Virus record (IMG/VR): IMGVR_UViG_3300016265_000300
Coordinates: 1-35,544 of that record
From: a virus
Taxonomy: Duplodnaviria > Caudoviricetes
DNA length: 35,544 nucleotides
Reading direction: 5' to 3' (one strand)
Made by a program: the position numbers and the translations under genes. Under the pieces are notes generated by a model, which did not search any database, was not told the origin of the DNA, and worked only from the letters and a program-made list of their open reading frames with translations. Positions 1 through 35,436 of this stretch are shown in pieces. Every line of letters begins with the position of its first letter. Position 1 is the stretch's first letter.

Positions 1-2
1 CT

Positions 3-842: not shown

Positions 843-873
843 TATACCGCTACAAAAACATAAGGAGAATATT

Positions 874-1527: not shown

Positions 1528-1536
1528 AAACTAATC

Positions 1537-1574
1537 GTGGTGGGGGTAGATGATTTGTTCTCTGCCCCCACTGC
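1537..1574 (+). terminator. GC-rich hairpin between ssb and dnaE (attenuator or mRNA-stabilising stem)
   Basis: GTGGGGGTAGA...TCTGCCCCCAC inverted repeat; no U-tract. Confidence 0.55.
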
Positions 1575-1598
1575 CCACAAAATTAAGGAAAATTTTAT

Positions 1599-4877: not shown

Positions 4878-5205
4878 TGAATTAGCAATGGAACTGCATG
4901 AAACCGCAGTTAAAAAAGGTTTCTGGAAAGTTATTGACGATGCTTCTAAAGAGCAAGTAGATATCTTTATAGCTAAACAATTAATGATGATTGTTTCGGA
5001 AGTAACTGAAGCTATGGAAGCAATCCGCAAAGACAAGGGCGAAGAAGAAATTGCTGCAGAGTTTGCAGATATTATAATTCGCACACTTGACCTATACGCA
5101 GGTTTAGTAGAGCAAGGTTATACGAATATATCTTTGGACTACGCACTTGAAAACAAAACTGGGTTTAACAAAACACGCCCAGAGAAGCATGGGGTTAGAT
5201 TTTAA
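4870..5205 (+). CDS. MazG-like NTP pyrophosphohydrolase
   Basis: SEVTEAMEA...EEEIAAEFADIIIR motif; ATG at 4870 overlaps the end of dnaE. Confidence 0.8.
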   Translation: MFDELAMELHETAVKKGFWKVIDDASKEQVDIFIAKQLMMIVSEVTEAMEAIRKDKGEEEIAAEFADIIIRTLDLYAGLVEQGYTNISLDYALENKTGFNKTRPEKHGVRF

Positions 5206-6215: not shown

Positions 6216-6387
6216 TATTTATCCTGGCTCATTTCCTTGCCATACCTGTAAGGTAGAAGTCAAAACAGTTAGGCTGTATCCACAGGAAAAACTTATTACT
6301 TGGATGTGTCCAGAAAAGCACCTAAATGAAGTAAGCCTACAAACTAAAAAGAAGAAGAAAGATTATGAGCGAAAAGAACGAGAGTAA
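6202..6387 (+). CDS. Small zinc-ribbon protein
   Basis: CxxC...CxxxH; overlaps both neighbours in the operon. Confidence 0.65.
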   Translation: MGKYSIYPGSFPCHTCKVEVKTVRLYPQEKLITWMCPEKHLNEVSLQTKKKKKDYERKERE

Positions 6388-6652
6388 GCGTATTGGTGCT
6401 AAACAGCATAAAAACTCTGGTCGTGGCACAAAGAAAGGCGATGCTTCTTGGGAGAACTTTACAGTTGATTTTAAAGAAGTAGGCAAGTCTTTTACTTTAA
6501 ATAAAGATGTTTGGGCTAAGGCTACTACAGATGCTATTCGTAATGGTAATGACCCTGCTATTGTTGTCGTTATTGGTGAGAATGGTATTAAAACAAGACT
6601 AGCAATCATCGAGCTTTCTTTACTTGACCAGATACTCAACGATGGTGTATAA
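6365..6652 (+). CDS. Hjc-type PD-(D/E)xK Holliday junction resolvase/nuclease
   Basis: NSG...KGD...VDFKE motif arrangement. Confidence 0.7.
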   Translation: MSEKNESKRIGAKQHKNSGRGTKKGDASWENFTVDFKEVGKSFTLNKDVWAKATTDAIRNGNDPAIVVVIGENGIKTRLAIIELSLLDQILNDGV

Positions 6653-6678
6653 TAGAATTATAACATTAAGGAAACAAA

Positions 6679-6993
6679 ATGGAAAACAGAGAACAAAATA
6701 AATCAACTTTAGAGATGGTCAATGGTCTTTCAGAGATTGCTGACTTTATGAATGACGAAGAACTTACCACAGCACTTACGTTTGTTGCTAAGGTAATTCT
6801 AAAGCCAGACATTCCACTAAACGTTGCAACAGTAGAAATAGTACGCTTGCAAGCAATTGCTGCAAAGATGTCGCTTAAAGCCACTTGGATGGTCAATGTA
6901 GAAAAAGGAGATAGAGCGAAGAAGAATATTTACTTCACTGCTGCCGAAGCAATTAATGACTTGGTATCAGCACTTAAATATATTACTCGCTAG
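6679..6993 (+). CDS. Hypothetical alpha-helical protein
   Basis: TG-TATAAT extended -10 upstream, AAGGA RBS, coupled to the next gene. Confidence 0.75.
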   Translation: MENREQNKSTLEMVNGLSEIADFMNDEELTTALTFVAKVILKPDIPLNVATVEIVRLQAIAAKMSLKATWMVNVEKGDRAKKNIYFTAAEAINDLVSALKYITR

Positions 6994-7001
6994 TGGCTAT
7001 T

Positions 7002-7811
7002 ATGGCTAAGAACTTATTAAATCAGGTTATGCTTAAAAAAGCAGAATCAAATCCACAATCAAAACCATCTTTCTTGAATAAGGAAGAACTGATTGCAAAA
7101 ATTAATTCAGGATACACAGTTAATCGTGTAGACAAATTCCAACAGAAAAAGACATTTGCACCTAGCACTATTGCTTATGCATTTGGTGAGTGCCCTAGAT
7201 ATTGGTACCTTGCTTTTGAAGGTGCAGTATTTACAGACAACGCAGATGCTTATGGTGCTGCAAACATGACAGCTGGAACAAAGTCTCACGAAAGAATTCA
7301 GGAAGCCATGAAGAACGTTCCAGGACTTCTAGTTGATTCTGAATTTAAAGTAACATACAATGACCCACCAATCTTCGGATTTGGTGACGTTATTCTTAAC
7401 TGGGATGAAAAAGAATTGCTTGGAGAAATCAAGACAATGCCTAACGAGGGCTTTGAGTATAGAAAAACAGCAGGTAAACCAAAAACTGGTCACGTCATTC
7501 AGTTGCTTATCTATATGAAGATTTTGAACAAGAGCAAGGCAGTACTAATTTACGAAAACAAAAATAATCACGAACTATTGATTTTTCCTATTGAAGTAAA
7601 TCAGTACATGTATGAGTGGGTAGAGAACACATTTGAATGGATGCGACAGGTTCGTAAGGCATGGGAAAACAAAACATTGCCTACAAAGAACTATCGTTCT
7701 AATTCAAAGATTTGCAAGGTATGTCCTATTAGGGAAGCCTGTGAAGCTGCTGGTTCTGGAGAGATAAAACTAAATTCTCTGGAGCCATTAGATGAAAACA
7801 AAATATTGTAG
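7002..7811 (+). CDS. Cas4-like / PD-(D/E)xK exonuclease
   Basis: CPRYWY, GTKSHERIQ, GFGD..EIKT, QLLIYM and C-terminal CxxCPxxxxC Fe-S cysteines. Confidence 0.85.
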   Translation: MAKNLLNQVMLKKAESNPQSKPSFLNKEELIAKINSGYTVNRVDKFQQKKTFAPSTIAYAFGECPRYWYLAFEGAVFTDNADAYGAANMTAGTKSHERIQEAMKNVPGLLVDSEFKVTYNDPPIFGFGDVILNWDEKELLGEIKTMPNEGFEYRKTAGKPKTGHVIQLLIYMKILNKSKAVLIYENKNNHELLIFPIEVNQYMYEWVENTFEWMRQVRKAWENKTLPTKNYRSNSKICKVCPIREACEAAGSGEIKLNSLEPLDENKIL

Positions 7812-8088
7812 TTGGTGCGACCATCAGTTTGAAACTAAATTATCTTATCAGATATATTGCTCTCCCGAATGTAGAGAGCTTGCAACTAAAGAAAAAATTG
7901 CAGAAAAGTATTTGAGAGATAAGATTAAAAAACGTGCTAATAAAATCAGGCTTTGTAAAAATTGTGGCAGAAAGTTGTCTATGTATACAGATGAAATTAT
8001 TTGTCAATCTTGTGACATTGTTCCAGACGAAGTTAAGGATGCACTAAAAGAAATTAGAGGAATAGCAAATGGTAAAATCGAACTCTAA
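7792..8088 (+). CDS. Cys-rich zinc-finger protein
   Basis: CxxC..YCSxxC..CxxC..CxxC. Confidence 0.75.
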   Translation: MKTKYCSWCDHQFETKLSYQIYCSPECRELATKEKIAEKYLRDKIKKRANKIRLCKNCGRKLSMYTDEIICQSCDIVPDEVKDALKEIRGIANGKIEL

Positions 8089-8635
8089 AAAATTCTGTGC
8101 CATTGATGCTAGCACTAATAGCTTGGCTTTTGCAATATTTGATAATGGCAAGATAACAGCCTGTGGCAAGATTAAGTTTAGTGGAACTACTACTTATGAA
8201 AAGGTTATGGATGCCGCTAAGAAAACTAAGATGTTCTTTGATAACTTTGATTTTGATACTATTGTAATCGAACATACAGTATTTATGAACAGCCCTAAGA
8301 CTGCTGCACAACTGGCTATGGTCCAGGGAGCACTTCTTGGGGCTGCGTCTATGTCTGGGGTAAAACACATAGGTTCTGTGTCACCAATAACTTGGCAAAA
8401 CTTTATTGGCAATAAGAAATTAACTAAAGAAGAAAAGCTTCAGGTTATGAAAGACAACCCAAAGAAATCAAATTCCTGGCTCAAGAATGAAGAACGAAAC
8501 ATTCGCAAGCAAAGAACCATAAACTTTGTTAATATAAATTACGACAAGGATTTGATAGATGATGATGTTGCTGATGCCTGTGCTATTGGGCATTGGGCTA
8601 TTCATAATTGGACTAAGGCATTTGGGGGGTATTGA
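8069..8635 (+). CDS. ruvC: RuvC-like Holliday junction resolvase
   Basis: AIDAST, VIE and DDDVADACAI acidic catalytic motifs. Confidence 0.8.
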   Translation: MVKSNSKKFCAIDASTNSLAFAIFDNGKITACGKIKFSGTTTYEKVMDAAKKTKMFFDNFDFDTIVIEHTVFMNSPKTAAQLAMVQGALLGAASMSGVKHIGSVSPITWQNFIGNKKLTKEEKLQVMKDNPKKSNSWLKNEERNIRKQRTINFVNINYDKDLIDDDVADACAIGHWAIHNWTKAFGGY

Positions 8636-8639
8636 CAAA

Positions 8640-8795
8640 ATGGCAAATAAGTTTTATACTAATGAAGCATGGTTACGCAAACGCTATTGGATAGACAAGA
8701 AAACTCCAGAACAGATAGCCAAGGAATGCGGAGCCACAACAGAAACAATCTATGTATATTTAGCAAAATTTGGATTAAGGAAGTCTAAGAGATGA
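8640..8795 (+). CDS. Small HTH DNA-binding protein
   Basis: TPEQIAKECGATTETIYVYLAKFG helix-turn-helix; ATG at 8640 follows GGGGGG. Confidence 0.75.
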   Translation: MANKFYTNEAWLRKRYWIDKKTPEQIAKECGATTETIYVYLAKFGLRKSKR

Positions 8796-9079
8796 AAAAA
8801 GTTAAAGCAAGCAAGCCGCAGACCACAAAATTTAGCAGAGAGTATAGCCTACAATTTGGCAATTTTACTATTGCTAAAGGTGATATCATTAAGATAGATG
8901 GAGAACATGGTCTAAAGTTCCAGTTTGATAGTCTTGTCACGAACACCGAAACAGGTGTGTCGTGGGTAGATTGTTTTGAAATGGACAAGGGCAAGCCATC
9001 GTCTTGGCGTTCTTTTTATCCAGACAAGGTAAAGAGAATTCCAACAAAGCGTGGAAGAAGGAAAAAGAATGTCACTTGA
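8792..9079 (+). CDS. Hypothetical SH3-like basic protein
   Basis: ATGA overlap with the upstream stop; KGDIIKI...WVDC...RSFYPDKVK. Confidence 0.75.
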   Translation: MKKVKASKPQTTKFSREYSLQFGNFTIAKGDIIKIDGEHGLKFQFDSLVTNTETGVSWVDCFEMDKGKPSSWRSFYPDKVKRIPTKRGRRKKNVT

Positions 9080-9605
9080 AGACCTAACGGTTGAACATCT
9101 TGACGAGATGAATAAGGTTGTGGAGAAGTATCTCCAGGGTATAGAGCCTACCCAAATCTCTAAACAACTTTCTTTATCTAGAAATAAGGTTGTTGCACAC
9201 ATTAACCAATGGAAGCAACTTGCCTCAGACAATTCTATTATTCGTGCTAGAGCTAAAGAAGCTCTTGCTGGTGCTGACGCACACTTTAATAGACTTATTA
9301 GTAAAGCATATGAAGTTATTGATGATGCTACCACTACCGCCAATCTTGGAGCTAAGACTGGTGCTATTAAACTTGTATTAGATATTGAGACCAAGCGTAT
9401 TGATATGCTACAAAAAGCTGGCTTGCTTGAGAACAAAGAACTTGCAGAAGAAATGCTAGAGATTGAACGCAAACAAGATATTCTTGTTGGCATTCTTAGA
9501 GATGTTGCTTCGGAATATCCGCAGGTAAGAGACGAAATTATGCGTAGGCTTTCTGCGGTATCAAAAGAACAAGAGGTAATTACAATTGTCCACGATGTTC
9601 AATGA
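9069..9605 (+). CDS. Probable terminase small subunit
   Basis: N-terminal HTH (PTQISKQLSLSRNKV) plus helical oligomerisation region; directly upstream of and overlapping TerL. Confidence 0.65.
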   Translation: MSLEDLTVEHLDEMNKVVEKYLQGIEPTQISKQLSLSRNKVVAHINQWKQLASDNSIIRARAKEALAGADAHFNRLISKAYEVIDDATTTANLGAKTGAIKLVLDIETKRIDMLQKAGLLENKELAEEMLEIERKQDILVGILRDVASEYPQVRDEIMRRLSAVSKEQEVITIVHDVQ

Positions 9606-11382
9606 TTTTATTGAAGTACTTAAAAGTAATGTATTTGAGGAAAAACCAGTAGACGTAAAGACATTTGTTGAAGGCGATGAATTCTTAGGGCAACCATCAT
9701 TATCAGAAATACAATATGACATTGTAGAAGCTATGAGTCAAATCTATAGACTAGATGACCTTATTGAAATTATGGGAGACACAGAAGGTCGCAGACACTA
9801 TGCTAAATATACTAAAAATGAGATTATTCTACAGCTTGGTAAAGGTTCTGGTAAGGACTTTGTTTCTACCGTTGCTTGTTGCTATGTTGTTTATAAACTA
9901 CTTTGCTTAAAAGACCCTGCTCGTTATTTTGGCAAGCCATCTGGGGATGCTATAGATATTATCAACATTGCTATTAACGCACAACAGGCTAAGAACGTTT
10001 TCTTTAAAGGATTTAAAACTAAGGTAGAAAAGTCGCCTTGGTTTGCTGGAAAGTATTATGCAAAGGTAGATAGCATAGAGTTTAATAAGGCTATTACTGT
10101 TTATTCTGGTCACTCGGAGCGTGAGTCTCACGAAGGTCTTAACCTTATCTTGGCAGTACTTGACGAGATTGCTGGTTTTGCTCAAGAAGTTGGCACAGGA
10201 AATGAGCAGGGAAAGACCGCAGAGAACATCTATAAAGCCTTCCGTGCCTCCGTAGACAGCCGTTTTCCCGATTTAGGCAAAGTTGCCCTACTATCCTTTC
10301 CTAGATACCCTGGAGACTTTATTTCGACTAGATATGACGAGGTAATTGCTGACAAAGAAGTCACGGTAAAGAAACATAAGTTTATTATGAATCCAGACCT
10401 GCCAGAAGAAACAGAAGGAAATACCCTAGAAATAGAATGGGAAGAAGACACAATTCTAGCCTATAAGTTTCCTGGAATGTTTGCCATTAAAAGACCAACA
10501 TGGGTAGTAAATCCTACTCGTAAAGTAGATGATTTTAAACTAGCTTTTTACACAGACCTTGGCGATGCTATGCAACGTTTTGCTTGCGTACCTACCTATG
10601 CTTCAGACGCATTCTTTAAACAACAGGACAAGGTTCGTGCCTGTATGACGTTAGTTAATCCAATTAACTCTAACAAATCATTTGTAGAATCATTTAAACC
10701 AGACCCAGATAAGAAATACTTTGTTCATGCTGACCTTGCACAAAAGCACGACAAGTGTGCTGTAGCTATTGCTCACGTTGAGAAGTGGGTAAATGTCCAG
10801 GTAGTTAAAGATTACCAACAAGTAATGCCTATTGTAGTAGTAGATGCAGTAGTATATTGGGAGCCACGCATTGAAGGTCCAGTAAACCTATCTGATGTAA
10901 AACAATGGATTCAGAATTTGCGTAGACTTGGATTTGATATTGGCATGGTTTCGTTTGACCGCTGGCAATCTTTTGACATTCAAAACGAATTAAAATCTGT
11001 TGGTATTAAAACAGAAACAGTTTCTGTAGCCAAGAAGCACTATGAAGATATGGCTATGCTTATTTACGAAGAGCGTCTTGCTATGCCAGCAATAGATTTG
11101 TTGTTTGAAGAATTAACAGAACTAAAAATTATGAAGGGTAATCGTGTAGACCACCCACGCAAATCATCTAAAGACTTAGCAGATGCTGTGTGTGGTGCTA
11201 TCTTTGGTGCAATATCTCACACACCAAGAGACTTAAATCAGATGGTTGAGATACACACATTTAGAAGTAGAAAAGTTGAAGACATGCACGAATGGGATAC
11301 TCGCAGTATTGTAGAACGCAATAAGCCAGACCAAAAAGATTTAGATGCATACTTTAAACAGTTTAACATTAATATAATGTAG
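9586..11382 (+). CDS. terL: Terminase large subunit
   Basis: Walker A GKGSGKD, Walker B LAVLDE, coupling motif LSFP, nuclease motifs HADLAQKHD and SKDLADA. Confidence 0.92.
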   Translation: MSTMFNDFIEVLKSNVFEEKPVDVKTFVEGDEFLGQPSLSEIQYDIVEAMSQIYRLDDLIEIMGDTEGRRHYAKYTKNEIILQLGKGSGKDFVSTVACCYVVYKLLCLKDPARYFGKPSGDAIDIINIAINAQQAKNVFFKGFKTKVEKSPWFAGKYYAKVDSIEFNKAITVYSGHSERESHEGLNLILAVLDEIAGFAQEVGTGNEQGKTAENIYKAFRASVDSRFPDLGKVALLSFPRYPGDFISTRYDEVIADKEVTVKKHKFIMNPDLPEETEGNTLEIEWEEDTILAYKFPGMFAIKRPTWVVNPTRKVDDFKLAFYTDLGDAMQRFACVPTYASDAFFKQQDKVRACMTLVNPINSNKSFVESFKPDPDKKYFVHADLAQKHDKCAVAIAHVEKWVNVQVVKDYQQVMPIVVVDAVVYWEPRIEGPVNLSDVKQWIQNLRRLGFDIGMVSFDRWQSFDIQNELKSVGIKTETVSVAKKHYEDMAMLIYEERLAMPAIDLLFEELTELKIMKGNRVDHPRKSSKDLADAVCGAIFGAISHTPRDLNQMVEIHTFRSRKVEDMHEWDTRSIVERNKPDQKDLDAYFKQFNINIM

Positions 11383-11407
11383 TGATATAATAAAGTCATG
11401 GAGTACC

Positions 11408-11572
11408 ATGGCTAATAACGTGACACCGTTTCATCATCGTAAAAGTCAGCACTGGCATCTACGAAGACCAAGAAACTTGTTGCGTAGTCAATATAAAATG
11501 AGTCAAAATAGATATCAAAATCAAACTCGAATGGCTCCAAGCAAAAAGAACGACAATCTTTCTTACGAATAG
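11408..11572 (+). CDS. Small basic hypothetical protein (54 aa; not in ORF track)
   Basis: MANNVTPFHHRKSQHWHLRRPRNLLRS...; TG-A-TATAAT upstream and a GGAG RBS. Confidence 0.55.
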   Translation: MANNVTPFHHRKSQHWHLRRPRNLLRSQYKMSQNRYQNQTRMAPSKKNDNLSYE

Positions 11573-11617
11573 AATGGTATAATAATCTTGTCAGGCATTT
11601 CTGACAAGGAGAACCCC

Positions 11618-13069
11618 ATGAAAAAAATTTTTAAATTTGCAGTAGGAGTAGCAATGTCCTGTCTGTTTATGATTGCAACACCTTTGGCTTTTGCTGATAC
11701 AACTGATGACTATAATCGCAAGGTATCTGAAGCACAGGCAAAGATTAATGACTTACAAAACCAGCTTAATGCTGCTCAAGCAAGTTTGGATAGTTGGACA
11801 AACTCGTCTAACGAACAAGCAGAACTAATTAACTCAGCCCAGACAGCGGCTACAGAAGCAGAGCAAGCATTGGATGCAGCATTATCTAATTATGAACTAA
11901 AGAGAGCAGACTATGATGCTTGGTATGTTCAGGTACAGGCAGCAGAAGAAGTTGTTGTAGAAGCAATTGCTGATGTAAATGCAGCCGCTGACGTAGTAGA
12001 TAGCACATACGATGATTATTCGGTTGCACAAGCAAATGCCGATAATGCAGAAGCAGAAATGAATACTGCTCAGGTAAACTACGACACTCAACTAATAAAT
12101 GTTGGTGGAGAAGGTACAACACCAGGTTTGGTTGTAGATGTATATGTTGGCATTAGTCAATACGGTAATCCACCTAGTCGCTCCGACATTGTTTACACAA
12201 AATGTAAAACAGTTACAGTAGATAACATTCAGGCTAACTGGGGTAGTGGCAGTATCTTTGGTTGTGGTGGAGATTACGTTATGCTTCACTACCGTGGATA
12301 CATTACCTACCCAACTACAAGTAAGGTATATTTCCAAGCACAGGCTGATGACGGTTTCTACATGAAAATAAATGGTCAGCAAGTGATTAATGACTGGTCG
12401 CTAAAAGGCTGTGGGGCTAACTCAACTGGTATGTTCTCCTTTACAGGTGGAAAGTCCTACGCCATTGATGCATGGTTCTATGAGTGGGGTGGAGGTGCAT
12501 GTTCTACATTATACTACCAGCCACAAAATGGTCAGTGGGGTGTAGCACCTGCTTCATTCTTTACTCAAGATTCGGCTGCTACATGGGTAAAAGACCCTGC
12601 AAAGAAAGCAATTCTAGACCAAAAGACAGCAGCCTATGTTTCTGCGGTAGCTGTAGAAGAACAAAAATACGACATATATATTAATGCAGAAAACTCCTAT
12701 GACGGTGAATGGCTAACTTATGTAGCACTTAGTGGAGACCTTGCAAGCAAACGAACAACACTATTACAACTAGAAACAGTTATGGATAATTCTGAAAGCG
12801 AGTGGCAGTTTAGGGTTGACGATAAAGCTGTCAAAGATGCAGACCTGAGAGATTTAAAAGTTCAGTATGCAACTACATTTGATGGTATTCAAAATGCAGT
12901 CAATCTTGTTGACAGACTAGAAGCAGAACTGGCTCAAGCAAAAATAGATTTACAGAACATTCCTAAGCCATCAGCAAAGGATAAAAGAAAACCAAAGAAG
13001 GTGACTAATAGACCAATGGCAGATGGAGCCTACATGCCTAGAGAAATCTTTTTCCCTGTCCCAAAATAA
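11618..13069 (+). CDS. Secreted coiled-coil protein with PA14 domain (short isoform, 483 aa)
   Basis: AAGGAG RBS; signal peptide ending AFA/D; PA14 motifs ADDGFYMKING...INDW and WFYEWGGGA, flanked by Ala/Glu/Gln-rich coiled coils. Confidence 0.85.
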   Translation: MKKIFKFAVGVAMSCLFMIATPLAFADTTDDYNRKVSEAQAKINDLQNQLNAAQASLDSWTNSSNEQAELINSAQTAATEAEQALDAALSNYELKRADYDAWYVQVQAAEEVVVEAIADVNAAADVVDSTYDDYSVAQANADNAEAEMNTAQVNYDTQLINVGGEGTTPGLVVDVYVGISQYGNPPSRSDIVYTKCKTVTVDNIQANWGSGSIFGCGGDYVMLHYRGYITYPTTSKVYFQAQADDGFYMKINGQQVINDWSLKGCGANSTGMFSFTGGKSYAIDAWFYEWGGGACSTLYYQPQNGQWGVAPASFFTQDSAATWVKDPAKKAILDQKTAAYVSAVAVEEQKYDIYINAENSYDGEWLTYVALSGDLASKRTTLLQLETVMDNSESEWQFRVDDKAVKDADLRDLKVQYATTFDGIQNAVNLVDRLEAELAQAKIDLQNIPKPSAKDKRKPKKVTNRPMADGAYMPREIFFPVPK

Positions 13070-13341
13070 TTCCCCCCAAGGAGTTTGAGACAAACCCAGT
13101 CGCAAACATACCATTAGTGGGGGCGGTGTTTGAAGGGCTAGCAGATGCTTTTAATGCCCTAAATAACATTGGTGCAGACATGTCTCCAGCGGTCAGAGAA
13201 AAGGCACAAGAGGTGGTTGTATCTGCAATTATTGTTACGCAGATTGCTACACAGGCAGCAGCTATGGCTACACAAGCAGCAGCTGCAGCAAGTGCGTCTT
13301 CTGGTTCATCATCTGGTTCATCTAGGAGGATAAAACAATGA
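13060..13341 (+). CDS. -1 frame extension of the PA14 protein (membrane anchor); ORF-track 13117..13341
   Basis: The -1 frame is open from 13042 through C CCA AAA (13060-13066) into IIPPKEFETNPVANIPLVGAVF...VVVSAIIVTQIA...RRIKQ. No well-spaced RBS for GTG 13117. Confidence 0.7.
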   Translation, partial: PKIIPPKEFETNPVANIPLVGAVFEGLADAFNALNNIGADMSPAVREKAQEVVVSAIIVTQIATQAAAMATQAAAAASASSGSSSGSSRRIKQ

Positions 13342-13517
13342 AAGATTTTTTAAGTGATATGGTAAACCAACTATGGACACTTTTAGGTATGTTTGTTGCC
13401 TGGATTGTTCTTGAAGGTTCTGCCAAAACAGTTGTTGGCTACTGTATTCTCGGTAGCACTGTATTGTGGGCTTTGACCTATAGACTCAGAAACCCTAAAG
13501 ATAAGGAGGAAGACTAA
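13338..13517 (+). CDS. Small two-TM membrane protein (59 aa; not in ORF track)
   Basis: AGGAGG RBS; MKDFLSDMVNQLWTLLGMFVAWIVLEGSAK...; ATGA and TAATG overlaps at both ends. Confidence 0.8.
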   Translation: MKDFLSDMVNQLWTLLGMFVAWIVLEGSAKTVVGYCILGSTVLWALTYRLRNPKDKEED

Positions 13518-13813
13518 TGAAAACATTCGGTAATGTCCTTATGCGTATCGTTGCAACCTTCGTTGCATCAGCACTTGGAGTAGTTGGTGCTGGTACCGTT
13601 GCAAGCGGTGTAAGCGGAATTGATATCCCAGTTTGGTTCAGTGCTGTTATGGGTGGTATTTTAGCAGTAGCTAAAGTAGTAGAACTACTATCCCTAGCAT
13701 TCCTGGAAGATGGCAAGCTATCTCGTAATGAGATTGATGCTGCTTTCCGTCAGACTGTTGCTCTCAAAGATGTTGCTAAAGATGAACAAACATCTAGCAC
13801 ACCTAAGAAATAA
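13517..13813 (+). CDS. Two-TM membrane protein, holin-like
   Basis: Two hydrophobic helices and a charged C-terminal DGKLSRNEID; AAGGAGG RBS. Confidence 0.7.
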   Translation: MKTFGNVLMRIVATFVASALGVVGAGTVASGVSGIDIPVWFSAVMGGILAVAKVVELLSLAFLEDGKLSRNEIDAAFRQTVALKDVAKDEQTSSTPKK

Positions 13814-13814
13814 C

Positions 13815-13868
13815 TTGACAAAACCCCTTTTGGTGCCCTATAATTGATATAGACCTGAAAGGGGTTTT
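13815..13868 (+). promoter_or_regulatory. sigmaA promoter nested in an 11-bp inverted repeat that includes the downstream RBS
   Basis: TTGACA (13815)-N18-TATAAT (13839); arms AAAACCCCTTT (13820-13830) and AAAGGGGTTTT (13858-13868). Confidence 0.7.
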
Positions 13869-13869
13869 T

Positions 13870-14112
13870 ATGTCAATGACTTTTGATGAATGGTTGCAGT
13901 ATGGTTTATCACAGGGCTGGAATGGTCCTGCTGTTTGTGCTATCCACGATGGCTTACCAACAACTGCCGAAGAAGATGCTGGATGGGAACTAGGTGCAGA
14001 TGATTGTATCCATGTTTTAAGATTGTACGAAGATAAAGCAATCAAAGCGGCTGTGGAAGAAAATCATGCTCCGTCTGTATGGCGAGCAACAAATAGTGGC
14101 TATACACTTTAA
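13870..14112 (+). CDS. Conserved-looking small actinophage protein
   Basis: FDEWLQYG..GW.GP.VC..HDG.P...DDCIHVLRLY; has its own promoter. Confidence 0.8.
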   Translation: MSMTFDEWLQYGLSQGWNGPAVCAIHDGLPTTAEEDAGWELGADDCIHVLRLYEDKAIKAAVEENHAPSVWRATNSGYTL

Positions 14113-21446: not shown

Positions 21447-22124
21447 ATGAAACTTGGTCTTGTTATACCTTGGAGAGAAACTCCTAGCAGAATAAAACCA
21501 TTTGAAATAGTTGTTGATTGGTATAAAACTAATTTAACAGACATTGAGATATTTTATGCAGATAGACCAGGAAATTGGAATATTGCTGCTAGTCGAAATG
21601 ATGGGGTAAAAAAGGCACAGGAGGCTCACTGTGACGTTATTATAGTTAATGACGCAGATACACTACCCGAAATTGAGCCTTTGTTAAAAGCCATCGAAGA
21701 ATGCCAAAAAGATGGAATGATTCATAATCCTTTTAGTGTTTGCAAAACTTTTACAGAAAAAGAAAGTCAGTTATTTTATGAAAACACAAGCATATCTTTA
21801 TATAATTTAAAAGGGACAGTTCATCAAACATCTGTGGGCGGTGTCTATGTTTGTACTCCAGAAGCTTGGTGGAACATGGGTGGTCAGGATGAAAAATTTA
21901 TTCAATGGGGCTATGAAGATAGTGCATTTGATATTGCCCATCAAATTATTCATAAAACTGCAATCAAAAAACATCCTGGATATATTTATTCTTTAGGTCA
22001 CAAAGAACAGATACATGATGAAGGATTTAATAAAAATCAGGCTGAAAACAGGGATTTATATTTGCGGTATTTTCAGAACCATACTCCAGAGTCAATACTA
22101 AAATTAATTAAACAAAAATACTAG
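21447..22124 (+). CDS. GT-A glycosyltransferase (GT2/GT7-like)
   Basis: VIPWR, SRNDG, DAD and GGQDEKFIQWGYED. Confidence 0.88.
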   Translation: MKLGLVIPWRETPSRIKPFEIVVDWYKTNLTDIEIFYADRPGNWNIAASRNDGVKKAQEAHCDVIIVNDADTLPEIEPLLKAIEECQKDGMIHNPFSVCKTFTEKESQLFYENTSISLYNLKGTVHQTSVGGVYVCTPEAWWNMGGQDEKFIQWGYEDSAFDIAHQIIHKTAIKKHPGYIYSLGHKEQIHDEGFNKNQAENRDLYLRYFQNHTPESILKLIKQKY

Positions 22125-23140
22125 CCAATAGTCTTAATGATTGTCAGCGTTTTTGATTTCACAGAACTTGACAAAGGAGAATACCCTAAGCCAGCACCTT
22201 TGGCTGGCAAACAAGTGCTAACAACATAAGTAAACCATTTTTGAATAGCCAAGCCTTTGTCAGTAGATGTTTTTTGAGAAGTAGGTCTTTTTGGTGCTAA
22301 CCCATAGGTAACTATAGACAATTGATAAGCACCAGAAACAACTTTGTTAAAATCAATTGTAATTGTTCCATCTGGATTTATTATCTGTGCGTTAATAAAT
22401 CTACCTGCAGCACTGGCGGTAGGTGCAACAAATGAACCAGCTGCGTTTCTCAATTTTGCAATAGACACATCTGCATTGATTGCGTCAGACAAGTCAAAAT
22501 AACCAAAGGCATTAGAATTATCTTCGATGTAGGTTGCTAGCAGTTGTGAGTTCGCAAATGAAGTTGAGTTTGCTGTTAATCCACCAGAAGATGCAGCCAT
22601 GTCGCTACCTGGTGTCCAGCCACCAACAGTTTGACGCAAATAGTTAATCAGATTTGTGTTAGTTCCTGAGCCAGATGTTCTATAAGCAACCTTTATTGCC
22701 TTCTTTGGAAGTTTAACTCTAGGATTTAATGCTTTAATTTGAGCATCATCCCAACGAGTGATAGTGCCTTTTAGAATGCCAGAAACAATCTGTGGAGTCA
22801 GGTTGAGTCCATCTCCAACGCCAACTGCAGAATAAGCAAAAGCAACTGGTCCACCAAATAGTGGAAAGGTTACATAGCTAAAGTTTGGATAGCCAGATGT
22901 GTATGGTGCATCGGTAGCAGCCCAGTCAACATTTTTAGCAGCAAATTCAGTACGACCTGTGCCAGAACCAGTCGAAACATAGTTTACATCATCAACTGTA
23001 TAGTTTGCAGAACAAACAGCCAGGGCATTATAAGCAAAAGAAGAACCCTTGCCAGCAAGAGATTCGCCAGCATAGGCTGGGGTAGTAGAGGTCAATAGAC
23101 CAATAGAAAGAACGATAGATATAATACGAGAAATTTTCAT
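22121..23140 (-). CDS. pstS: Phosphate ABC transporter substrate-binding protein
   Basis: GKGSSF, YVSTGSGTG, DWAATD, ITRWDDAQIKALNP, YRTSGSGT, AYQLSIVTY; signal peptide ending AYA. Confidence 0.93.
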   Translation of the reverse strand: MKISRIISIVLSIGLLTSTTPAYAGESLAGKGSSFAYNALAVCSANYTVDDVNYVSTGSGTGRTEFAAKNVDWAATDAPYTSGYPNFSYVTFPLFGGPVAFAYSAVGVGDGLNLTPQIVSGILKGTITRWDDAQIKALNPRVKLPKKAIKVAYRTSGSGTNTNLINYLRQTVGGWTPGSDMAASSGGLTANSTSFANSQLLATYIEDNSNAFGYFDLSDAINADVSIAKLRNAAGSFVAPTASAAGRFINAQIINPDGTITIDFNKVVSGAYQLSIVTYGLAPKRPTSQKTSTDKGLAIQKWFTYVVSTCLPAKGAGLGYSPLSSSVKSKTLTIIKTIG

Positions 23141-23777: not shown

Positions 23778-23911
23778 ATGCCCATTATACCATTAAAAGT
23801 TCGGTTCGTAAAGGGGTAAAATCGGGCGGAAATAAGGTGTCCAAACGCTTGACAAGCAAGCGAATATCCCCTATAATTGATATACAAGGTCCATTAAACG
23901 ATAGGAAACGT

Positions 23912-24415
23912 ATGCAAACCTTTTTACCTTTTAAAGACTTCCATAAGTCTGCACAAGCCTTAGACAGTAAACGCCTTAATAAACAGGTTCTTGAAGGCTA
24001 TCAAATTCTTAAAGTATTATCTAACGAAGACCCTAAAGCTGCTTGGCGTAATCATCCTGCTGTAAAGATGTGGCGTGGTTATGAGGGACAACTATGGCTA
24101 TATATTATGGCTATGGTTAAGGAAGCAAATAAGCGTGGTATTAAGACTGATAAGAATATGTCTAATCTTTCTGAGCTTAAGTCTTGGGCTGGGGATTTGT
24201 GGGGGTATTCAATTCCAAAGTGGTTTAAAGACCCTTTCACTATGTCTAGACTAACCACTACACATAGGGCTAATCTATATAAGAAAGACCCTGTGTATTA
24301 CTGTGATTTCTATAACTCGCTTGAATCTAGTGAGCCTTGTTGCCCTGACCGCAAAGTGCCTTGCCAGTATTATTGGATTGCACACGACCCTAAGTTTAGT
24401 ATGGTGGCTGCATGA
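23912..24415 (+). CDS. Pyrimidine-dimer DNA glycosylase-like (MSMEG_6728 / endonuclease V family)
   Basis: MQTFLP...LDSKRLNKQVLEGYQIL...HPAVKMWRG...HRANL..KDP.YY; TTGACA-N17-TATAAT promoter at 23849. Confidence 0.85.
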   Translation: MQTFLPFKDFHKSAQALDSKRLNKQVLEGYQILKVLSNEDPKAAWRNHPAVKMWRGYEGQLWLYIMAMVKEANKRGIKTDKNMSNLSELKSWAGDLWGYSIPKWFKDPFTMSRLTTTHRANLYKKDPVYYCDFYNSLESSEPCCPDRKVPCQYYWIAHDPKFSMVAA

Positions 24416-25703: not shown

Positions 25704-25732
25704 AGTTCCTATTATACTCTTATCCACTGACA

Positions 25733-25999
25733 TTATCTAGGGGCTGACAGGAAAATGTCATCTAGTGTTGTGAAATCGTTATCTTCTACTTCTAGGCTTA
25801 CTAGTAGTAGTTTGAAGGTCTCTTCAATGAATACCTTGCCAGCATCCCTAGCAGATATTAGGTTGTAGGCTAGAGCATATGCCAAAGGCAGACCCAAATC
25901 GTTATATGAGATAAAGTCTTCAAAGTTCTCGTCATCTCTATAATTCATCCATAGTTCTGCTAGGATTTTAGTCTTGTTTTCGAATGTGGTTTCTGCCAT
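25733..25999 (-). CDS. Hypothetical protein
   Basis: MAETTFENK...ILAELW...YNDLGLPLAY; AGAAAG RBS. Confidence 0.75.
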   Translation of the reverse strand: MAETTFENKTKILAELWMNYRDDENFEDFISYNDLGLPLAYALAYNLISARDAGKVFIEETFKLLLVSLEVEDNDFTTLDDIFLSAPR

Positions 26000-29472: not shown

Positions 29473-29521
29473 AAGGGTTTCTCTTTCTGTTAGATTATTA
29501 TTATAGGGGATAGCACTGACA

Positions 29522-29791
29522 TTACCAAAGCATAGCCGCTTGCTCTAACATTTCATCATAAAGTATCTTATGATTGTCAGGCTCAAGAGACATCCACGCT
29601 TCTTGACGAATGCCTGTTAGCATTTCAATAAAAGACATTGTTTCAGGAGTGCGTTTTATTCTACCACTTTCAATCCCATTCCAAAACTCTCTTTCAAGTG
29701 CTTCAAGACCCCAAACCTTAAATTGCCTGATTTGGTAGGATTTTAGTTCGCTTGCTTCGGGGTATTCATAGTATTCTTCAGTTTCATTCAT
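29522..29791 (-). CDS. Hypothetical protein (leaderless)
   Basis: TTGACT-N18-TATAAT-N6-ATG (MNETEEYY...). Confidence 0.75.
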   Translation of the reverse strand: MNETEEYYEYPEASELKSYQIRQFKVWGLEALEREFWNGIESGRIKRTPETMSFIEMLTGIRQEAWMSLEPDNHKILYDEMLEQAAMLW

Positions 29792-29938
29792 AGATAAATT
29801 ATACAGGGTAGCACTGACATTAGTCAATAGTTCTGGGGAAAAATTTACCTGTTCGTAATTAAATATTTATTCTTATCTATCTTACATAACTAAAAATTTT
29901 TGCGCACAAAATCCAAGCTTTCGCAAGCAAGGATAATG

Positions 29939-29967
29939 TAAGCAGTTTTACAACTTGCTCAGGTTGT
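29939..29967 (-). ncRNA. Pseudoknot motif copy A
   Basis: ACAAC-C-TGAGCA-A-GTTGT-AAAAC-TGCTTA; 5 nt after the DUF932 stop. Confidence 0.7.
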
Positions 29968-29972
29968 TTGGT

Positions 29973-30986
29973 TTAGATGTTTGCCAAAACTAAACTCATT
30001 AGGCGATTTTTCTCTGCGTTGATTACAGGGTCAAATCCAGAAGCACTTGCGTAAATGCTTTCGTTGTTGCCACCACGAGCAGTTCTATACCAATCTAGGC
30101 GTTCTGTTAGAGCGTTGTAAGCACCCCAAGCAGTTCCAGCAATGGTGTTGTTATACTGACCAACATAAATGTCGTTTAGTAGTTCAACTTTGCTGTCGTG
30201 CTTTTTGAATGAACCCTTGCTGTCTTTTTCAGGGGCAGGGTAAGCAAGTTCAACAATCTTATCAAATTGAGCCTTAGTAATTTCAGTTTGAATAAGTTTG
30301 TTAGCAAGTTCGCTAAACTCGTCAATGTAAGAATTGGCAAGACCTAACGCTTGGCGAGCAACTGCGATTTTGCCTTCCGCTGTTTGAGTGTGTCTAATCT
30401 TGAATGTTTGCTTACTTGCTTTTCTACCCTTGAATGATGATAGAGCAAGGTTTAGCGTGTTAGCACATACAACTCTAACAGGTGTGATTGACGCTTGAAT
30501 AGCAATACTGCCATCGTGGCTAGTGTTGATAAGTAGATAGTTGTCTATCTTATCAGCAATGCCATTAGGGTCTAGGGTAATTGAGTTAGCCAATGCGATT
30601 GAACCAAATACAACTCTACCACCCTTGATTGAACCAGCAGTTTCCCAACGCCCACCACCATCTAGCAAGTTATCGCCAAATGAGAACAGGTCTTCATTCT
30701 GTAAAGGTGTGTAGCGTTCTCCAACAATACCAAGAATGTCTGTCTGGTCTTTGTTGAATGGATTAGTTCTTGATACAAAAGAATAAGTTTTGTCGCTAGT
30801 AAAACCAGCAGGGACAGGGACTTCTTCTAAGCGAACATTCCAATTGTCTAGTTTAGCAAGGGATAGCATTTCAGCAGTATTTACTTCATCTTGAAATACA
30901 GTTCCAAGATTGTGCCAAGCAGGTTGTCTAAGCGAAGCGAAAGTTGCTTGACCTGTCGCTTCGTCTATTTCTAATTCGTGAGCCAT
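29973..30986 (-). CDS. DUF932-family phage/plasmid protein
   Basis: PAWHNLG, Y.PLQNED.F.F, ETAGSIKGG..VF, SHDGS, TPVRVVCANTL, IRHT, GTAWGAYNALTE..D; GAAAGG RBS before MAHELE. Confidence 0.88.
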   Translation of the reverse strand: MAHELEIDEATGQATFASLRQPAWHNLGTVFQDEVNTAEMLSLAKLDNWNVRLEEVPVPAGFTSDKTYSFVSRTNPFNKDQTDILGIVGERYTPLQNEDLFSFGDNLLDGGGRWETAGSIKGGRVVFGSIALANSITLDPNGIADKIDNYLLINTSHDGSIAIQASITPVRVVCANTLNLALSSFKGRKASKQTFKIRHTQTAEGKIAVARQALGLANSYIDEFSELANKLIQTEITKAQFDKIVELAYPAPEKDSKGSFKKHDSKVELLNDIYVGQYNNTIAGTAWGAYNALTERLDWYRTARGGNNESIYASASGFDPVINAEKNRLMSLVLANI

Positions 30987-31242
30987 AAATGACCTTTCGT
31001 GATAGTGGTTTATTTGATAATCTATTTTCTCATAGTTTCGGGGAAAAGTCAATAGGGTTCGTAAATTATTTTGATAATCTTTTCCACAAGCTTTTCCACA
31101 GGGCGGTGCGCAAAAAATTATCCCCTTGCTACCAGCCATCTATCCAGACAACTTCGCAAGGGGATAGCCAACAAGAAACGATTATCTTATCTAGAAAGAG
31201 AACCTTTTCAGCAATCGCAGTTGATTATCTGTCTTGTTGGTG

Positions 31243-31271
31243 TAAGCAGTTTTACAATTTGCTCAGATTAC
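31243..31271 (-). ncRNA. Pseudoknot motif copy B
   Basis: GTAAT-C-TGAGCA-A-ATTGT-AAAAC-TGCTTA. Confidence 0.7.
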
Positions 31272-31324
31272 TGGTAGCCATCAGTAGTCCCCCATCTCAA
31301 TGCCACACCAGCCCAATGAGATTG

Positions 31325-31353
31325 GAAGCCTTTTAGACACTTGCTCAGGTGTT
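31325..31353 (-). ncRNA. Pseudoknot motif copy C
   Basis: ACAC-C-TGAGCA-A-GTGT-CTAAAAG-GCTT. Confidence 0.6.
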
Positions 31354-31415
31354 TGGCTAACGCAAGTCTAGCGATTTACCCTGACGGAACGGAAGACTAG
31401 GGGAAGCCAATGGTT

Positions 31416-31859
31416 TTACAGCAAGTCCATTACTGACGAATAGGTTGAAGCATTGACTTCTTCCTGAGTTGTTAGTTTTAGAACTTTGAGTGTCTTTTCC
31501 AACATTTCTAGTGGAGTAGCATACTCACGACCAAAGTGCTGTTTCTCATTTGGATTTGATGGTTTCTTTGGTTGGTCAGGTAAGCCAAGAGCATCAGCAT
31601 CTATGCTTACATCAACGCCACGATAGCCATAAGAAACACGAATAGGGCTATCATAGTTTTCGCCAATCAACTCAGGGTTATCAGTTAGAACCTTGATTAC
31701 AGACTTGACTAGATTTGCTTGGTGAGCCTTTACATCTGCTTCATACTGCTTTACATCAGCAGGGTATGTAGCAAGAGCAGACTTGATACTAGCAATCTTC
31801 TCTTCTACAAGAGAGATTAGACTAGCAGTTGGAACTTTTAGTGCTAATGAACGAGCCAT
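31416..31859 (-). CDS. Hypothetical protein
   Basis: Perfect TTGACA-N17-TATAAT at 31895-31923; AGAAAG RBS; C-terminal EEVNASTY. Confidence 0.8.
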   Translation of the reverse strand: MARSLALKVPTASLISLVEEKIASIKSALATYPADVKQYEADVKAHQANLVKSVIKVLTDNPELIGENYDSPIRVSYGYRGVDVSIDADALGLPDQPKKPSNPNEKQHFGREYATPLEMLEKTLKVLKLTTQEEVNASTYSSVMDLL

Positions 31860-31929
31860 TATTTTTCTTCTTTCTATTTAGGGTTATGTATAAAATTATA
31901 CAGGATAAAGGATGATTTGTCAATAGGGT

Positions 31930-31963
31930 TGAGCAGTTTTTTTGCCAGACATACTCAGGTCTG
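31930..31963 (-). ncRNA. Pseudoknot motif copy D
   Basis: CAGAC-C-TGAGTA-T-GTCTG-GCAAAAAAAC-TGCTCA. Confidence 0.7.
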
Positions 31964-31978
31964 CCCTATTTCTAGGAC

Positions 31979-32137
31979 TTAGTTTAGAACTCTACCTTTG
32001 GCAGAAGTCCAGTGTGGCTTTCCATTTACATCTAAACGCAAACGAATTGAACCATTCTTGTTCTCAACGATTTCCTGAACAATACCAACAAACTTGTTGG
32101 TCTTTGTCTCATACTTATCTCCAACTTTGATAGTCAT
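31979..32137 (-). CDS. Small SH3/KOW-like protein (52 aa; not in ORF track)
   Basis: MTIKVGDKYETKTNKFVGIVQEIVENKNGSIRLRLDVNGKPHWTS; AGAAAG RBS; promoter at 32208-32236. Confidence 0.75.
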   Translation of the reverse strand: MTIKVGDKYETKTNKFVGIVQEIVENKNGSIRLRLDVNGKPHWTSAKGRVLN

Positions 32138-32302
32138 AGATTTACCACTTTCTCTTTTCTTGCGAAAAGGCTATTTGTTTATTTATCAACATTTTTGCTG
32201 ATAGTCTATTGTCCCACGATTTCAGGGTTTTGTCAAGGGGTTTCGTAAAAGATTTCGTAAATGTTATCATTCTGTTATCAAAATCGGTGCGCAGAAATTT
32301 AG

Positions 32303-32374
32303 CAGTCCCAGAGAGAATCGAACTCTCGTTTCCAGGATGAAAACCTGATGTCCTGACCACTAGACGATGGGACC
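32303..32374 (-). tRNA. tRNA-Glu(TTC)
   Basis: Acceptor GGTCCCA/TGGGACT, anticodon arm TCAGG-TTTTCAT-CCTGG, T arm GAGAG-TTCGATT-CTCTC. Confidence 0.95.
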
Positions 32375-32377
32375 AAG

Positions 32378-32404
32378 TGAGCAGTTTTACCACTTGCTCA
32401 GGTG
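32378..32404 (-). ncRNA. Pseudoknot motif copy E
   Basis: CAC-C-TGAGCA-A-GTG-GTAAAAC-TGCTCA; 3 nt before the tRNA-Glu 5' end. Confidence 0.7.
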
Positions 32405-32434
32405 TGTTAGGCAGAAAAGAAAGGTTAGAACTGC

Positions 32435-32869
32435 CTAAACTTCTTCAATGTTGTAGTCATCAAGTTCCCAATGGTCAGTTTCAAGATACTCACTTGCTTC
32501 TCCGTGAAACTCTGTTGAGATACCCATACCATTAGCAATTTCATCAGGGTCAGTGCCAAATGGAACTAGGAAACAGGCTTCAACATTGTAAGTTGCTGTG
32601 ATTACAATTCTGCGTTCTAGTGTTAGACCAAATACATCTGCGATAGAGTTTGCTGCTACGCTGTCAATAGTTTCGTCAGTTAGTCCTTCAATGAGCAATT
32701 CTTGTAGTTCTTGCTCTTGTCTAGCACGATAACTATTCATCTCACTAATTCTAGTGTGTGCTTTGGATAGTTCTAGTTCTAGTTCGCTAATCTGGTTTAG
32801 CAACTCTGTAATCTTACCATTTAGGGCAGTTAGAACAGGGTGGTTGCTTGTTGCGTTTTCGTTTTCCAT
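32435..32869 (-). CDS. Acidic coiled-coil protein
   Basis: N-terminal heptads; AGAAAG RBS; promoter at 32897-32918. Confidence 0.8.
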   Translation of the reverse strand: MENENATSNHPVLTALNGKITELLNQISELELELSKAHTRISEMNSYRARQEQELQELLIEGLTDETIDSVAANSIADVFGLTLERRIVITATYNVEACFLVPFGTDPDEIANGMGISTEFHGEASEYLETDHWELDDYNIEEV

Positions 32870-32992
32870 AATTTCTCTTTCTTTCGGTGTATTTCAATTA
32901 TACAGATACCCACTGACATTTCAGGGTAAATTTAGGGTGTTTCGTAAATGATTTATCATTTTGTTATAATTTTTTGCGCAGCAGGGTAGAGC

Positions 32993-33378: not shown

Positions 33379-33404
33379 TAGTTATCCTTTGTTAGATTAT
33401 TATT

Positions 33405-33545
33405 TTACTCTATACCACTGACATCTTGGTCTATGATTACTTCAAAACAGTCTTCGCACTCTATCGCATAGTTCACTGGTTCATCATCTAAACCAGAATA
33501 CTTAGCAATAACTATACTGTGATTGAAATGGCGTTCAAGTTCCAT
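33405..33545 (-). CDS. Small Zn-ribbon-like protein
   Basis: H.IVIAKY...NYAIECEDCFEVIID. Confidence 0.65.
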   Translation of the reverse strand: MELERHFNHSIVIAKYSGLDDEPVNYAIECEDCFEVIIDQDVSGIE

Positions 33546-33769: not shown

Positions 33770-33989
33770 AGGGTTCTCTCTTTCTTTGTTTGATAAGTCT
33801 ATTTTACAGGATACCCCAGACATTTGCAAGGATTTCGTAAGGTGTTTCGTAAATCGTTATTTGGCTGTGATTTTTTGCGCAGCCTTTTGACCCCTATTGG
33901 AGAAAAAAGACTAACAAGGCTATTAGTGCCATCACAATTAGAAATGTTATCATACTCAATTATCCCATACATCTAACGCTTAGTCAAGA

Positions 33990-34706: not shown

Positions 34707-34798
34707 AGTTATCTTTCTTTAGGGGAAATACCAGTATAGCGTAATCTACTGACATTTACAATAGGCAGCTAAAAATTTGCGCAGCCCGAAGGCTACCT

Positions 34799-35067: not shown

Positions 35068-35364
35068 TTAGTTCCTTTCTTGATTATCTTTATTATAGTG
35101 GCTACCACTGACATAGACTTTAGGGTTTCTGGCATACATTCTGCCGTGCCAGTTATCATAGTTTTTTTCAACAATGTCAAATTGAATACCCTGACCTTTT
35201 AGAAACTCCAGAAACAGTGGTGCTTCAACATCTTCTTCAAGGTAAATAGTTATTCCGTTGATGTAGCCATAGCCAGTGCTAAATTGAATTGCGTCTGGGT
35301 ATTCGCTTCTATCTACTTCTAGCCAAGCGTGCCCTGCGTCTGAAATAAAATTGAATGTTGCCAT
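35068..35364 (-). CDS. Hypothetical protein
   Basis: MATFNFISDAGHAWLEV...IYLEEDVEAPLF; AGAAAGG RBS. Confidence 0.75.
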   Translation of the reverse strand: MATFNFISDAGHAWLEVDRSEYPDAIQFSTGYGYINGITIYLEEDVEAPLFLEFLKGQGIQFDIVEKNYDNWHGRMYARNPKVYVSGSHYNKDNQERN

Positions 35365-35436
35365 TTTTAGCCTTTCTTTTTGGTGTATCTTAATTATAAT
35401 TGCTACCACTGACATCAAATTTTGCGCACCGAAACC

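Follow-up and report, generated by a model that had tools for sequence, protein, structure and literature searches.

The window analysed here, which is the whole 35,544-nucleotide stretch of IMG/VR record IMGVR_UViG_3300016265_000300 (a 35.5-kb phage fragment), carries five copies of a repeat of ~28 bases that is predicted to fold as a compact H-type RNA pseudoknot, with covariation in both of its stems. The motif is a real, very widespread and uncatalogued phage RNA element, and it constitutes a cross-phylum family that is wider than the window phage; its putative function, deduced from sequence, is that of a compact pseudoknot roadblock. The reading that is tentatively preferred is a roadblock that would face the 5' end of the transcript.

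A loose descriptor found five copies on the minus strand of the window (29939-32407) and none on the plus strand, whereas 200 dinucleotide shuffles of the whole window, scanned on both strands, gave a mean of 0.46 matches and a maximum of 4. The five minus-strand copies, their coordinates and the arms of their first stem (P1) had been proposed in an earlier reading of this DNA (the original prediction), and the descriptor reproduces them. The same prediction placed the copies 3' of genes, one of them 3 nt before tRNA-Glu (copy E; Table 1) and two in a structured non-coding block (copies B and C), and these placements were also recovered. The block (31095-31415) folds better than 100/100 shuffles (z -3.3). 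Among 70 loci around relatives of the DUF932 gene of the window, 55 contain copies; all 105 of these copies are sense-strand, with none antisense, and the early region of these loci holds as many as five.

P1 was tested on 98 distinct arms, P1 being absent from the search pattern, and against shuffles that ignore relatedness. Pairs 2 and 3 are Watson-Crick in 95/98 arms each (shuffle maxima 59 and 49) and pair 4 in 70/98 (shuffle maximum 47), which agrees with the claim that P1 changes its sequence and keeps its pairing. The innermost pair is C-G in 94/98 arms, whereas copy B has U-A at this place. A fifth P1 pair was at chance level across the 98 arms and was rejected as a family feature.

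The second stem (P2) was examined in six scans, each requiring a substitution in the loop strand with the partner base unconstrained, and distinct matches with at least 3 P1 pairs were counted. The partner was Watson-Crick in 89/112 matches at position 2 (mismatch in 23), and pairing was kept in 111/111 at position 3 (105 G-C and 6 G-U), 100/101 at position 4, 3/6 at position 5 and 7/7 at position 6. At position 1, the outer U-A pair, the partner remained A in 59/89 and was complementary in only 8/89, and this pair was rejected. Since the outermost U-A pair does not covary, loop 1 is C-Y and P2 has five pairs, instead of the single-C loop and six-pair P2 first described; likewise, the change in P2 had been described as mainly G-U-compatible, but across phages true two-sided compensation is seen. 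The likely fold comprises a 4-bp P1, loop C-Y, a 5-bp P2, a single junction base and a linker with AAAC at its end, and the motif would presumably adopt it inside the cell. The invariant loop C and the AAAC linker may form base triples, with luteoviral and coremin pseudoknots as models; groove triples of the luteoviral pseudoknots are discussed in PMC10321173.

A descriptor search across phage genomes, one of the checks proposed with the original prediction, reveals a large family: the strict pattern, which leaves P1 free and fixes AAAC, matches ~1,800 IMG/VR stretches, as estimated from 5/64 parts. At least 3 P1 pairs are present in 132/136 distinct viral matches and in 63/118 GTDB genome matches, the remainder of which look like chance. 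The analysed set holds 692 distinct copies, 617 of them with sufficient flank. Intergenic copies were inspected in the cultured Mycobacterium phage Labelle, cyanophage S-RIM4, Lentibacter phage ICBM1, Lactobacillus phage AQ113, Paracoccus phage ParKuw1, Arthrobacter phage Amigo and crAss-like cr7_1, and tandem copies are seen in the family. In Amigo, loop C lies 12 nt past the stop of the SSB gene, and tRNA-Gly begins 2 nt past the motif. The search pattern found no copy in bases 1-14000 of Samisti12, and one blastn query, of low sensitivity, gave nothing in 5,426 E. coli genomes. Intergenic blast matches in S-EIVl and phage Page, missed by the patterns, were left out of the counts.

Two further observations concern the spread of the motif. 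In a metagenome-assembled genome (MAG) of Limisphaerales the motif is a spacer of clustered regularly interspaced short palindromic repeats (CRISPR; L212:1500-1525, labels in L denoting loci), so a phage of this host group likely bears it. In Saccharibacteria a gene is intact in L211 and truncated at the motif in L137, L157, L168, L187 and L236, apparently by recombination at a short shared sequence.

As had been anticipated, Rfam 15 holds no match to the motif in the window (gathering threshold, E<=10) or in 40 other loci, where only tRNA, transfer-messenger RNA (tmRNA) and the adjacent DUF2800 RNA were called; preQ1-I, SAM-II, ToxI, the ribozymes and the M23 and GP20 motifs are among the families that gave no match. 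The motif is probably missing because it is under 30 nt and pseudoknotted. A literature search found no description of it; it may figure among the unnamed candidates in the supplements of PMC5737381 and PMC10690425. In the supplementary files searched of the PMC10690425 catalogue (10,006 viral candidate RNAs), which are part of the set, it was not found.

A stop codon of a same-strand open reading frame (ORF) lies within 30 nt of the copy in 396/617 cases, against 96 in the opposite-strand control, and 14/617 copies fall within a long ORF. Among 373 flank clusters the distance from the stop to loop C is 9 nt in 68, 10 nt in 39 and <8 nt in 10; P1 most often begins 5 nt past the stop, and the distance from the copy to the next start codon is broad. 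This modal start of P1 coincides with the edge of the ribosome entry tunnel, at +9 from the first base of the stop as used in PMC7518266, and would be the closest site that leaves the fold intact under a terminating ribosome. In the window, P1 of copy A begins at the modal 5 nt past the stop of the DUF932 gene, with loop C at 10 nt; loop C lies 20 nt past the stop of ORF 31979-32137 in copy D, 33 nt past that of ORF 32435-32869 in copy E, and 67 nt past that of ORF 31416-31859 in copy C, with an inserted hairpin between, and copy B sits further down the same trailer as copy C. In relatives copy C likewise follows the gene corresponding to ORF 31416-31859, its distance from the stop being 9-12, 22-24 or 66-67 nt.

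The 5-nt spacing from the stop would suit a stop-codon readthrough or frameshift signal, and small H-type pseudoknots serve both as recoding signals and as riboswitch aptamers (PMC10321173). These roles, together with that of a double-stranded DNA site, are nevertheless the least probable of those considered. The stops before the motif are mostly UAA (107/161), and no signal of readthrough was seen, the frame staying open for at least 40 codons in only 34/161, with slippery sites looked at without a systematic search. The neighbouring genes of the inspected phage loci share no pathway, which makes the ligand binder of the original prediction unlikely, and many copies stand ahead of tRNAs. As for a DNA site working in either orientation, also considered at the outset, the copies lie strictly on the sense strand (105 against 0), and this polarity, with pairing-preserving changes that include G-U, indicates an RNA-level element.

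Beside the stop-codon association, a conserved ~20-codon ORF (MKxFxxPRxAHCxxGC) with a strong ribosome site was seen ~60 nt upstream of the motif in L155, L160, L164, L189, L196, L205, L237 and L244, from Aminicenantes, Deltaproteobacteria, Eubacteriales and other MAGs. It mostly ends at a UGA inside the motif, often with a terminator next, and the two 20-aa peptides tested gave no NCBIfam match.

The motif also neighbours other RNAs. In 39 copies, which form 13 flank clusters, a tRNA lies 2-13 nt downstream; tRNA-Asp makes up 25 of the 40 tRNAs found within 30 nt on this side, and many of the loci are homologous. The upstream tRNA calls within 30 nt number 7, three of them in tRNA-motif-tRNA order (L415, L268 and L710). 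The DUF2800 RNA (RF02960) lies 0 nt past the motif at 3/3 such loci tested (L014:285-445, L035:1525-1680 and L060:1525-1685), and its 5' end is suggested to be a processing boundary because the RNA begins at the base right after the motif. At L381:500-740, a phage permuted tmRNA with tag GNVNNIVDYTNVA has the motif in its intervening segment, where 3 nt separate it from the 5' end of the coding piece. A regular expression for hammerhead-like cores gave 11 downstream and 8 upstream; on inspection by eye 7 of the former were convincing, their cuts being 5-16 nt away, and 0 of the latter. The seven are compact hammerhead-like ribozymes of type III layout just downstream of the motif (L002, L093, L216, L266, L278, L312 and L432); L002 and L093, the only two submitted, were not called by Rfam. 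Across 424 clusters, promoter matches number 16 downstream and 6 upstream, so a copy is seldom the first element of a transcript, and terminators show no asymmetry (18 downstream vs 21 upstream).

Since the motif is found in intergenic positions of the type that hammerheads use, and beside tRNAs, and its core bases are invariant, it could itself be a self-cleaving ribozyme or a processing signal that recruits an endonuclease, cutting early transcripts into single-gene units. Where a hammerhead-like cut lies 5-16 nt away, or an RNase P site 2-13 nt away, a further cut would be superfluous; none of the ribozymes in Rfam matched in the window or the 40 other loci, and ~28 nt is, to our knowledge, well below the size of the known nucleolytic ribozymes; this explanation is quite improbable.

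The unpaired bases of the motif are near-invariant across the family and the central P2 pairs interchange freely (G-C, A-U, C-G). The former would suit a protein-binding site or an excised decoy RNA of ~35 nt (a mimic of tmRNA pseudoknot PK1, a ribosomal-protein ligand or a type III antitoxin-like decoy), and the latter points to shape rather than sequence. In keeping with a decoy, PK1 of three clostridial tmRNAs (L148, L220 and L249) fits the strict pattern, the tRNA-motif-tRNA and motif-hammerhead layouts would free a very short RNA, and an early region may hold up to five copies. Nevertheless, a fixed spacing to stop codons is unexpected for a trans-acting RNA. Furthermore, type III antitoxins are head-to-tail repeats of ~35 nt upstream of a toxin gene, whereas the copies are dispersed (82-1304 nt apart in the window); Rfam found no antitoxin in the window, and no toxin family appeared among the flanking proteins scanned. 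A protein-binding or decoy role is thus unlikely.

Because of its position, its polarity and the conservation of shape over sequence, the motif is best taken as a mechanical barrier. As a 5'-facing roadblock, the most credible function found although held with clear reserve, the pseudoknot would act without a ligand and would halt machines that travel 5' to 3', such as RNase J, scanning RNase E or ribosomes lingering past the stop codon; it would in this way shield the next module, be it the next gene, a pre-tRNA or a structured trailer. Some contexts fit only a barrier of this direction: copies between two tRNAs, the spacer of the permuted tmRNA of L381, and trailers already closed by a terminator (copies A, B and C of the window). 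The likeness to the viral RNA coremin, the precedent of the guanidine-III pseudoknot for RNase E, the tandem copies and the blank E. coli query weigh on the same side. RNase J over the family cut-off was present in 30/50 motif-bearing genomes against 18/50 chance-match genomes, and at E below 1e-80 in 32/50 against 23/50, a modest enrichment that is only suggestive. The motif set comprised 50 of the 63 paired genome matches (3 tmRNAs, 2 judged chance and 8 near-duplicates were dropped) and the control set 50 of the 55 unpaired matches (5 possible degenerate copies were dropped); many of these genomes are MAGs that are incomplete or possibly mis-binned.

On the other hand, the barrier could face the opposite way. 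As a 3'-end cap, the knot would halt PNPase, RNase R and RNase II, exonucleases that degrade RNA 3' to 5', shortly before they reach the stop codon. Once RNase P, a hammerhead or RNase E had cut, the upstream message would stay intact, and the knot would be a bacterial counterpart of the MALAT1 triple helix. This is possible, though doubtful. The cap would agree with the 39 copies ending shortly before a tRNA, against 7 upstream tRNA calls, and with the link to the upstream stop being tight and that to the downstream start loose. Further points favour it and at the same time weigh against the 5'-facing roadblock. In the seven copies just ahead of hammerhead-like cuts a 5' barrier protects nothing; promoters are commoner downstream, and copy D ends 6 nt before a 12/12 promoter match; RNase J, which a cap does not require, was undetected in 18/50 motif-bearing genomes, including 4/4 Aminicenantes, many being incomplete MAGs. 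The roadblock is also weakened by the intergenic copies of crAss-like phage cr7_1, by two unmatched requirements of coremin (G at loop position 2 and a second hairpin), by the spacing peak, for which a minimum distance combined with genome compaction is another explanation, compatible with any function, and by several chromosomal copies in which a 20-codon ORF enters the motif and terminates within it.

Against the cap, copies between two tRNAs or in the permuted tmRNA spacer have no message to guard and would get in the way of 3' trimming, copies A, B and C precede terminator hairpins that already cap the end, and the resemblance in sequence is to a 5' barrier. The evidence on direction is split, and we infer a 5'-facing barrier slightly ahead of a 3' one, the two not being mutually exclusive. 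The exonuclease barrier of the original prediction therefore holds best as a class, though somewhat less well in its 3' direction, and its processing signal and antitoxin decoy are possible but weaker than a barrier.

The features of the window are collected in Table 1. The fragment encodes WhiB, and the best cultured matches of its DUF932 gene are from Streptomyces Stanwilliamsviridae phages (~54% identity), both of which point to an actinobacterial host. The five copies sit where small minus-strand genes follow one another and several consensus promoters occur, probably the early region. A transcript begun at the promoter next to copy D would exclude this copy, if it starts where the sequence suggests. 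The trailer that holds copies C and B has the order hairpin, copy C, module, copy B, module and terminator-like hairpin. Relatives swap hairpin modules ahead of the terminator-like hairpin, and in many of them the trailer ends with a similar hairpin; that of the window is not among the entries of its promoter/terminator listing. The variant form of copy C is shared by relatives at the corresponding place and is therefore more than a decayed copy. In one contig, a weak case of 85% likeness, the 82 nt between copies C and B (window 31249-31332) are omitted, as if the repeats had recombined and a module had been lost.

Table 1. Motif copies and neighbouring features of the window
Feature	Position	Strand	Remarks
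Copy E	32378..32404	-	P1 3 bp, CAC/GUG
Copy D	31930..31963	-	P1 5 bp, CAGAC/GUCUG; A-rich linker long
Copy C	31325..31352	-	P1 4 bp, ACAC/GUGU; variant with AAAAGGCU, P2 4 bp
Copy B	31243..31271	-	P1 5 bp, GUAAU/AUUGU, two G-U pairs
Copy A	29939..29967	-	P1 5 bp, ACAAC/GUUGU
tRNA-Glu(TTC)	32302..32374	-	3 nt downstream of copy E end; 5' end presumably an RNase P site
Consensus sigma-70-type promoter TTGACA-17-TATAAT	31895..31923	-	Serves ORF 31416-31859; 12/12 match
Structured 3' trailer of ORF 31416-31859	31095..31415	-	Non-coding
Terminator-like GC hairpin and U run closing the trailer	31112..31165	-	From fold and by eye
Terminator-like hairpin and short U run	29906..29934	-	Directly past copy A; putative, by eye
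DUF932 / TIGR03299 gene	29973..30986	-	Upstream of copy A
147-aa ORF	31416..31859	-	No known family; upstream of trailer with copies C and B
52-aa ORF	31979..32137	-	No known family; upstream of copy D
144-aa ORF	32435..32869	-	No known family; upstream of copy E and tRNA-Glu
ATGTCAGTG promoter-like class	25706-25734, 29480-29529, 29786-29820, 32873-32921, 33390-33424, 34709-34757, 35072-35121, 35373-35422	-	
TGCGCA ... TTTACGAA cassette	29835-29910, 31035-31112, 32219-32295, 32918-32985, 33823-33859	-	

Other repeats were noticed in the window. The promoter-like class (families D1, D2, D5 and D8) has ATGTCAGTG followed ~12 nt on by a TATAAT-like box, precedes small genes, and is possibly a phage-specific or WhiB-dependent promoter. 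The cassette TGCGCA ... TTTACGAA recurs just upstream of TTGAC-type promoters, is also present in relatives and is likely an operator. At 31070-31100 (minus strand) there is a tandem pair of TGTGGAAAA boxes, which we take to resemble DnaA boxes, and similar TTATCCACA boxes come after the motif in L047 and L078. Accessory genes lie at 22121-23140, 5205-6215, 6993-7811 and 23837-24415; the products listed are a PstS-like phosphate-binding protein (by eye), RecA, a Cas4-like exonuclease and a pyrimidine dimer glycosylase.

Several known systems can be compared with the motif. The small pseudoknots ToxI, preQ1-I and SAM-II, and the theta and hammerhead ribozymes that adjoin phage genes or tRNAs, differ from it, since the motif has no Rfam match, shared pathway or known catalytic core, and neither a head-to-tail array nor a toxin gene was seen. 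The guanidine-III H-type pseudoknot blocks RNase E scanning and protects downstream RNA (review PMC12186494); unlike the phage motif, which Rfam does not match to it, it depends on a ligand, lies in 5' leaders of exporter genes and is unrelated in sequence. The ribosome termination structure (RTS; PMC7518266) is likewise a stable structure at the edge of the terminating ribosome that insulates the next cistron, but it is a matter of generic folding energy, with no conserved sequence or pseudoknot, whereas the phage motif is a discrete conserved family.

PK1 of tmRNA (RF00023) shares with the motif the H-type layout and a UAAA-type linker (Rfam consensus line). It is, however, an internal domain upstream of the resume codon, while the phage copies stand alone past stops, and the innermost P1 pair is G-U in the three clostridial tmRNAs and C-G in the phage motif. 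No tmRNA was found in the window, and the motif lies inside a tmRNA gene ahead of the tag frame only at L148, L220 and L249; these 3/118 genome matches fit homology and convergence alike.

Coremin (xrRNA-C), an exoribonuclease-resistant RNA (xrRNA) that is the closest known element and, like PK1, was absent from the original prediction, resists Xrn1 and also stalls scanning ribosomes, and an element with the loop CGAGUAA is among those that resist Xrn1 (PMC10520033); coremin and its Watson-Crick variant xrRNA-WCC come from plant, fungal and other RNA viruses (PMC10520033, PMC10321173). The phage motif is similar to coremin in its 4-bp first stem, in a loop with initial C and the usual A-A/G/U end, in an AAAC-containing spacer of ~8-10 nt (AAAC being fixed in the search patterns) whose 3' part contacts the loop, in its site just 3' of stops or between genes, and in its repeats. 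The tested 7-nt loop CGAGUAA is one base off the CUGAGUAA loop of the phage motif, which in contrast has an 8-nt loop, U/C at position 2, a canonical 5-bp P2 and bacterial hosts. The coremin loop consensus YGAD / YGNNAD does not describe it, as position 2 is mostly U, with G in 1/91 non-U variants. No second hairpin follows the spacer beyond control level (75/459 clusters, against 108/459 at a control 40 nt further), and a 7-nt-loop bridge to coremin was near chance in metagenomes (12/54, with ~8 expected by estimate). As for xrRNA-WCC, the loop of this variant must begin with G, and its last base must form a G-C pair with a spacer C (PMC10321173), whereas the phage loop starts with C and ends in A/U in 462/466 clusters, most patterns having A/U fixed there.

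By these features the motif, although not a member by two tested features, may work like coremin, the longer canonical P2 perhaps replacing the second hairpin. A wider claim, which we hold with less assurance than the roadblock itself, is that it would be a natural exoribonuclease-resistant RNA that is widespread in the bacterial world: a coremin-like roadblock of 28 nt in phages of at least Actinobacteria, Firmicutes, Cyanobacteria, Alphaproteobacteria and Bacteroidota and in some chromosomes, which would punctuate polycistronic RNA, uncouple the decay and translation of neighbouring genes, yield stable trailer RNAs comparable to eukaryotic viral subgenomic RNAs, and might share ancestry with coremin or tmRNA PK1. 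If the motif blocks 5' decay or run-on ribosomes, it would extend the xrRNA principle from eukaryotic viruses to phages and offer a simple answer to how RNA levels are set gene by gene on long early phage transcripts; it would also provide bacterial expression constructs with an insulator or stabiliser that is minimal and portable. The cultured carriers Arthrobacter phage Amigo, Mycobacterium phage Labelle and cyanophage S-RIM4, whose hosts are harmless, make it directly testable, and its canonical second stem could explain the unsolved fold of coremin.

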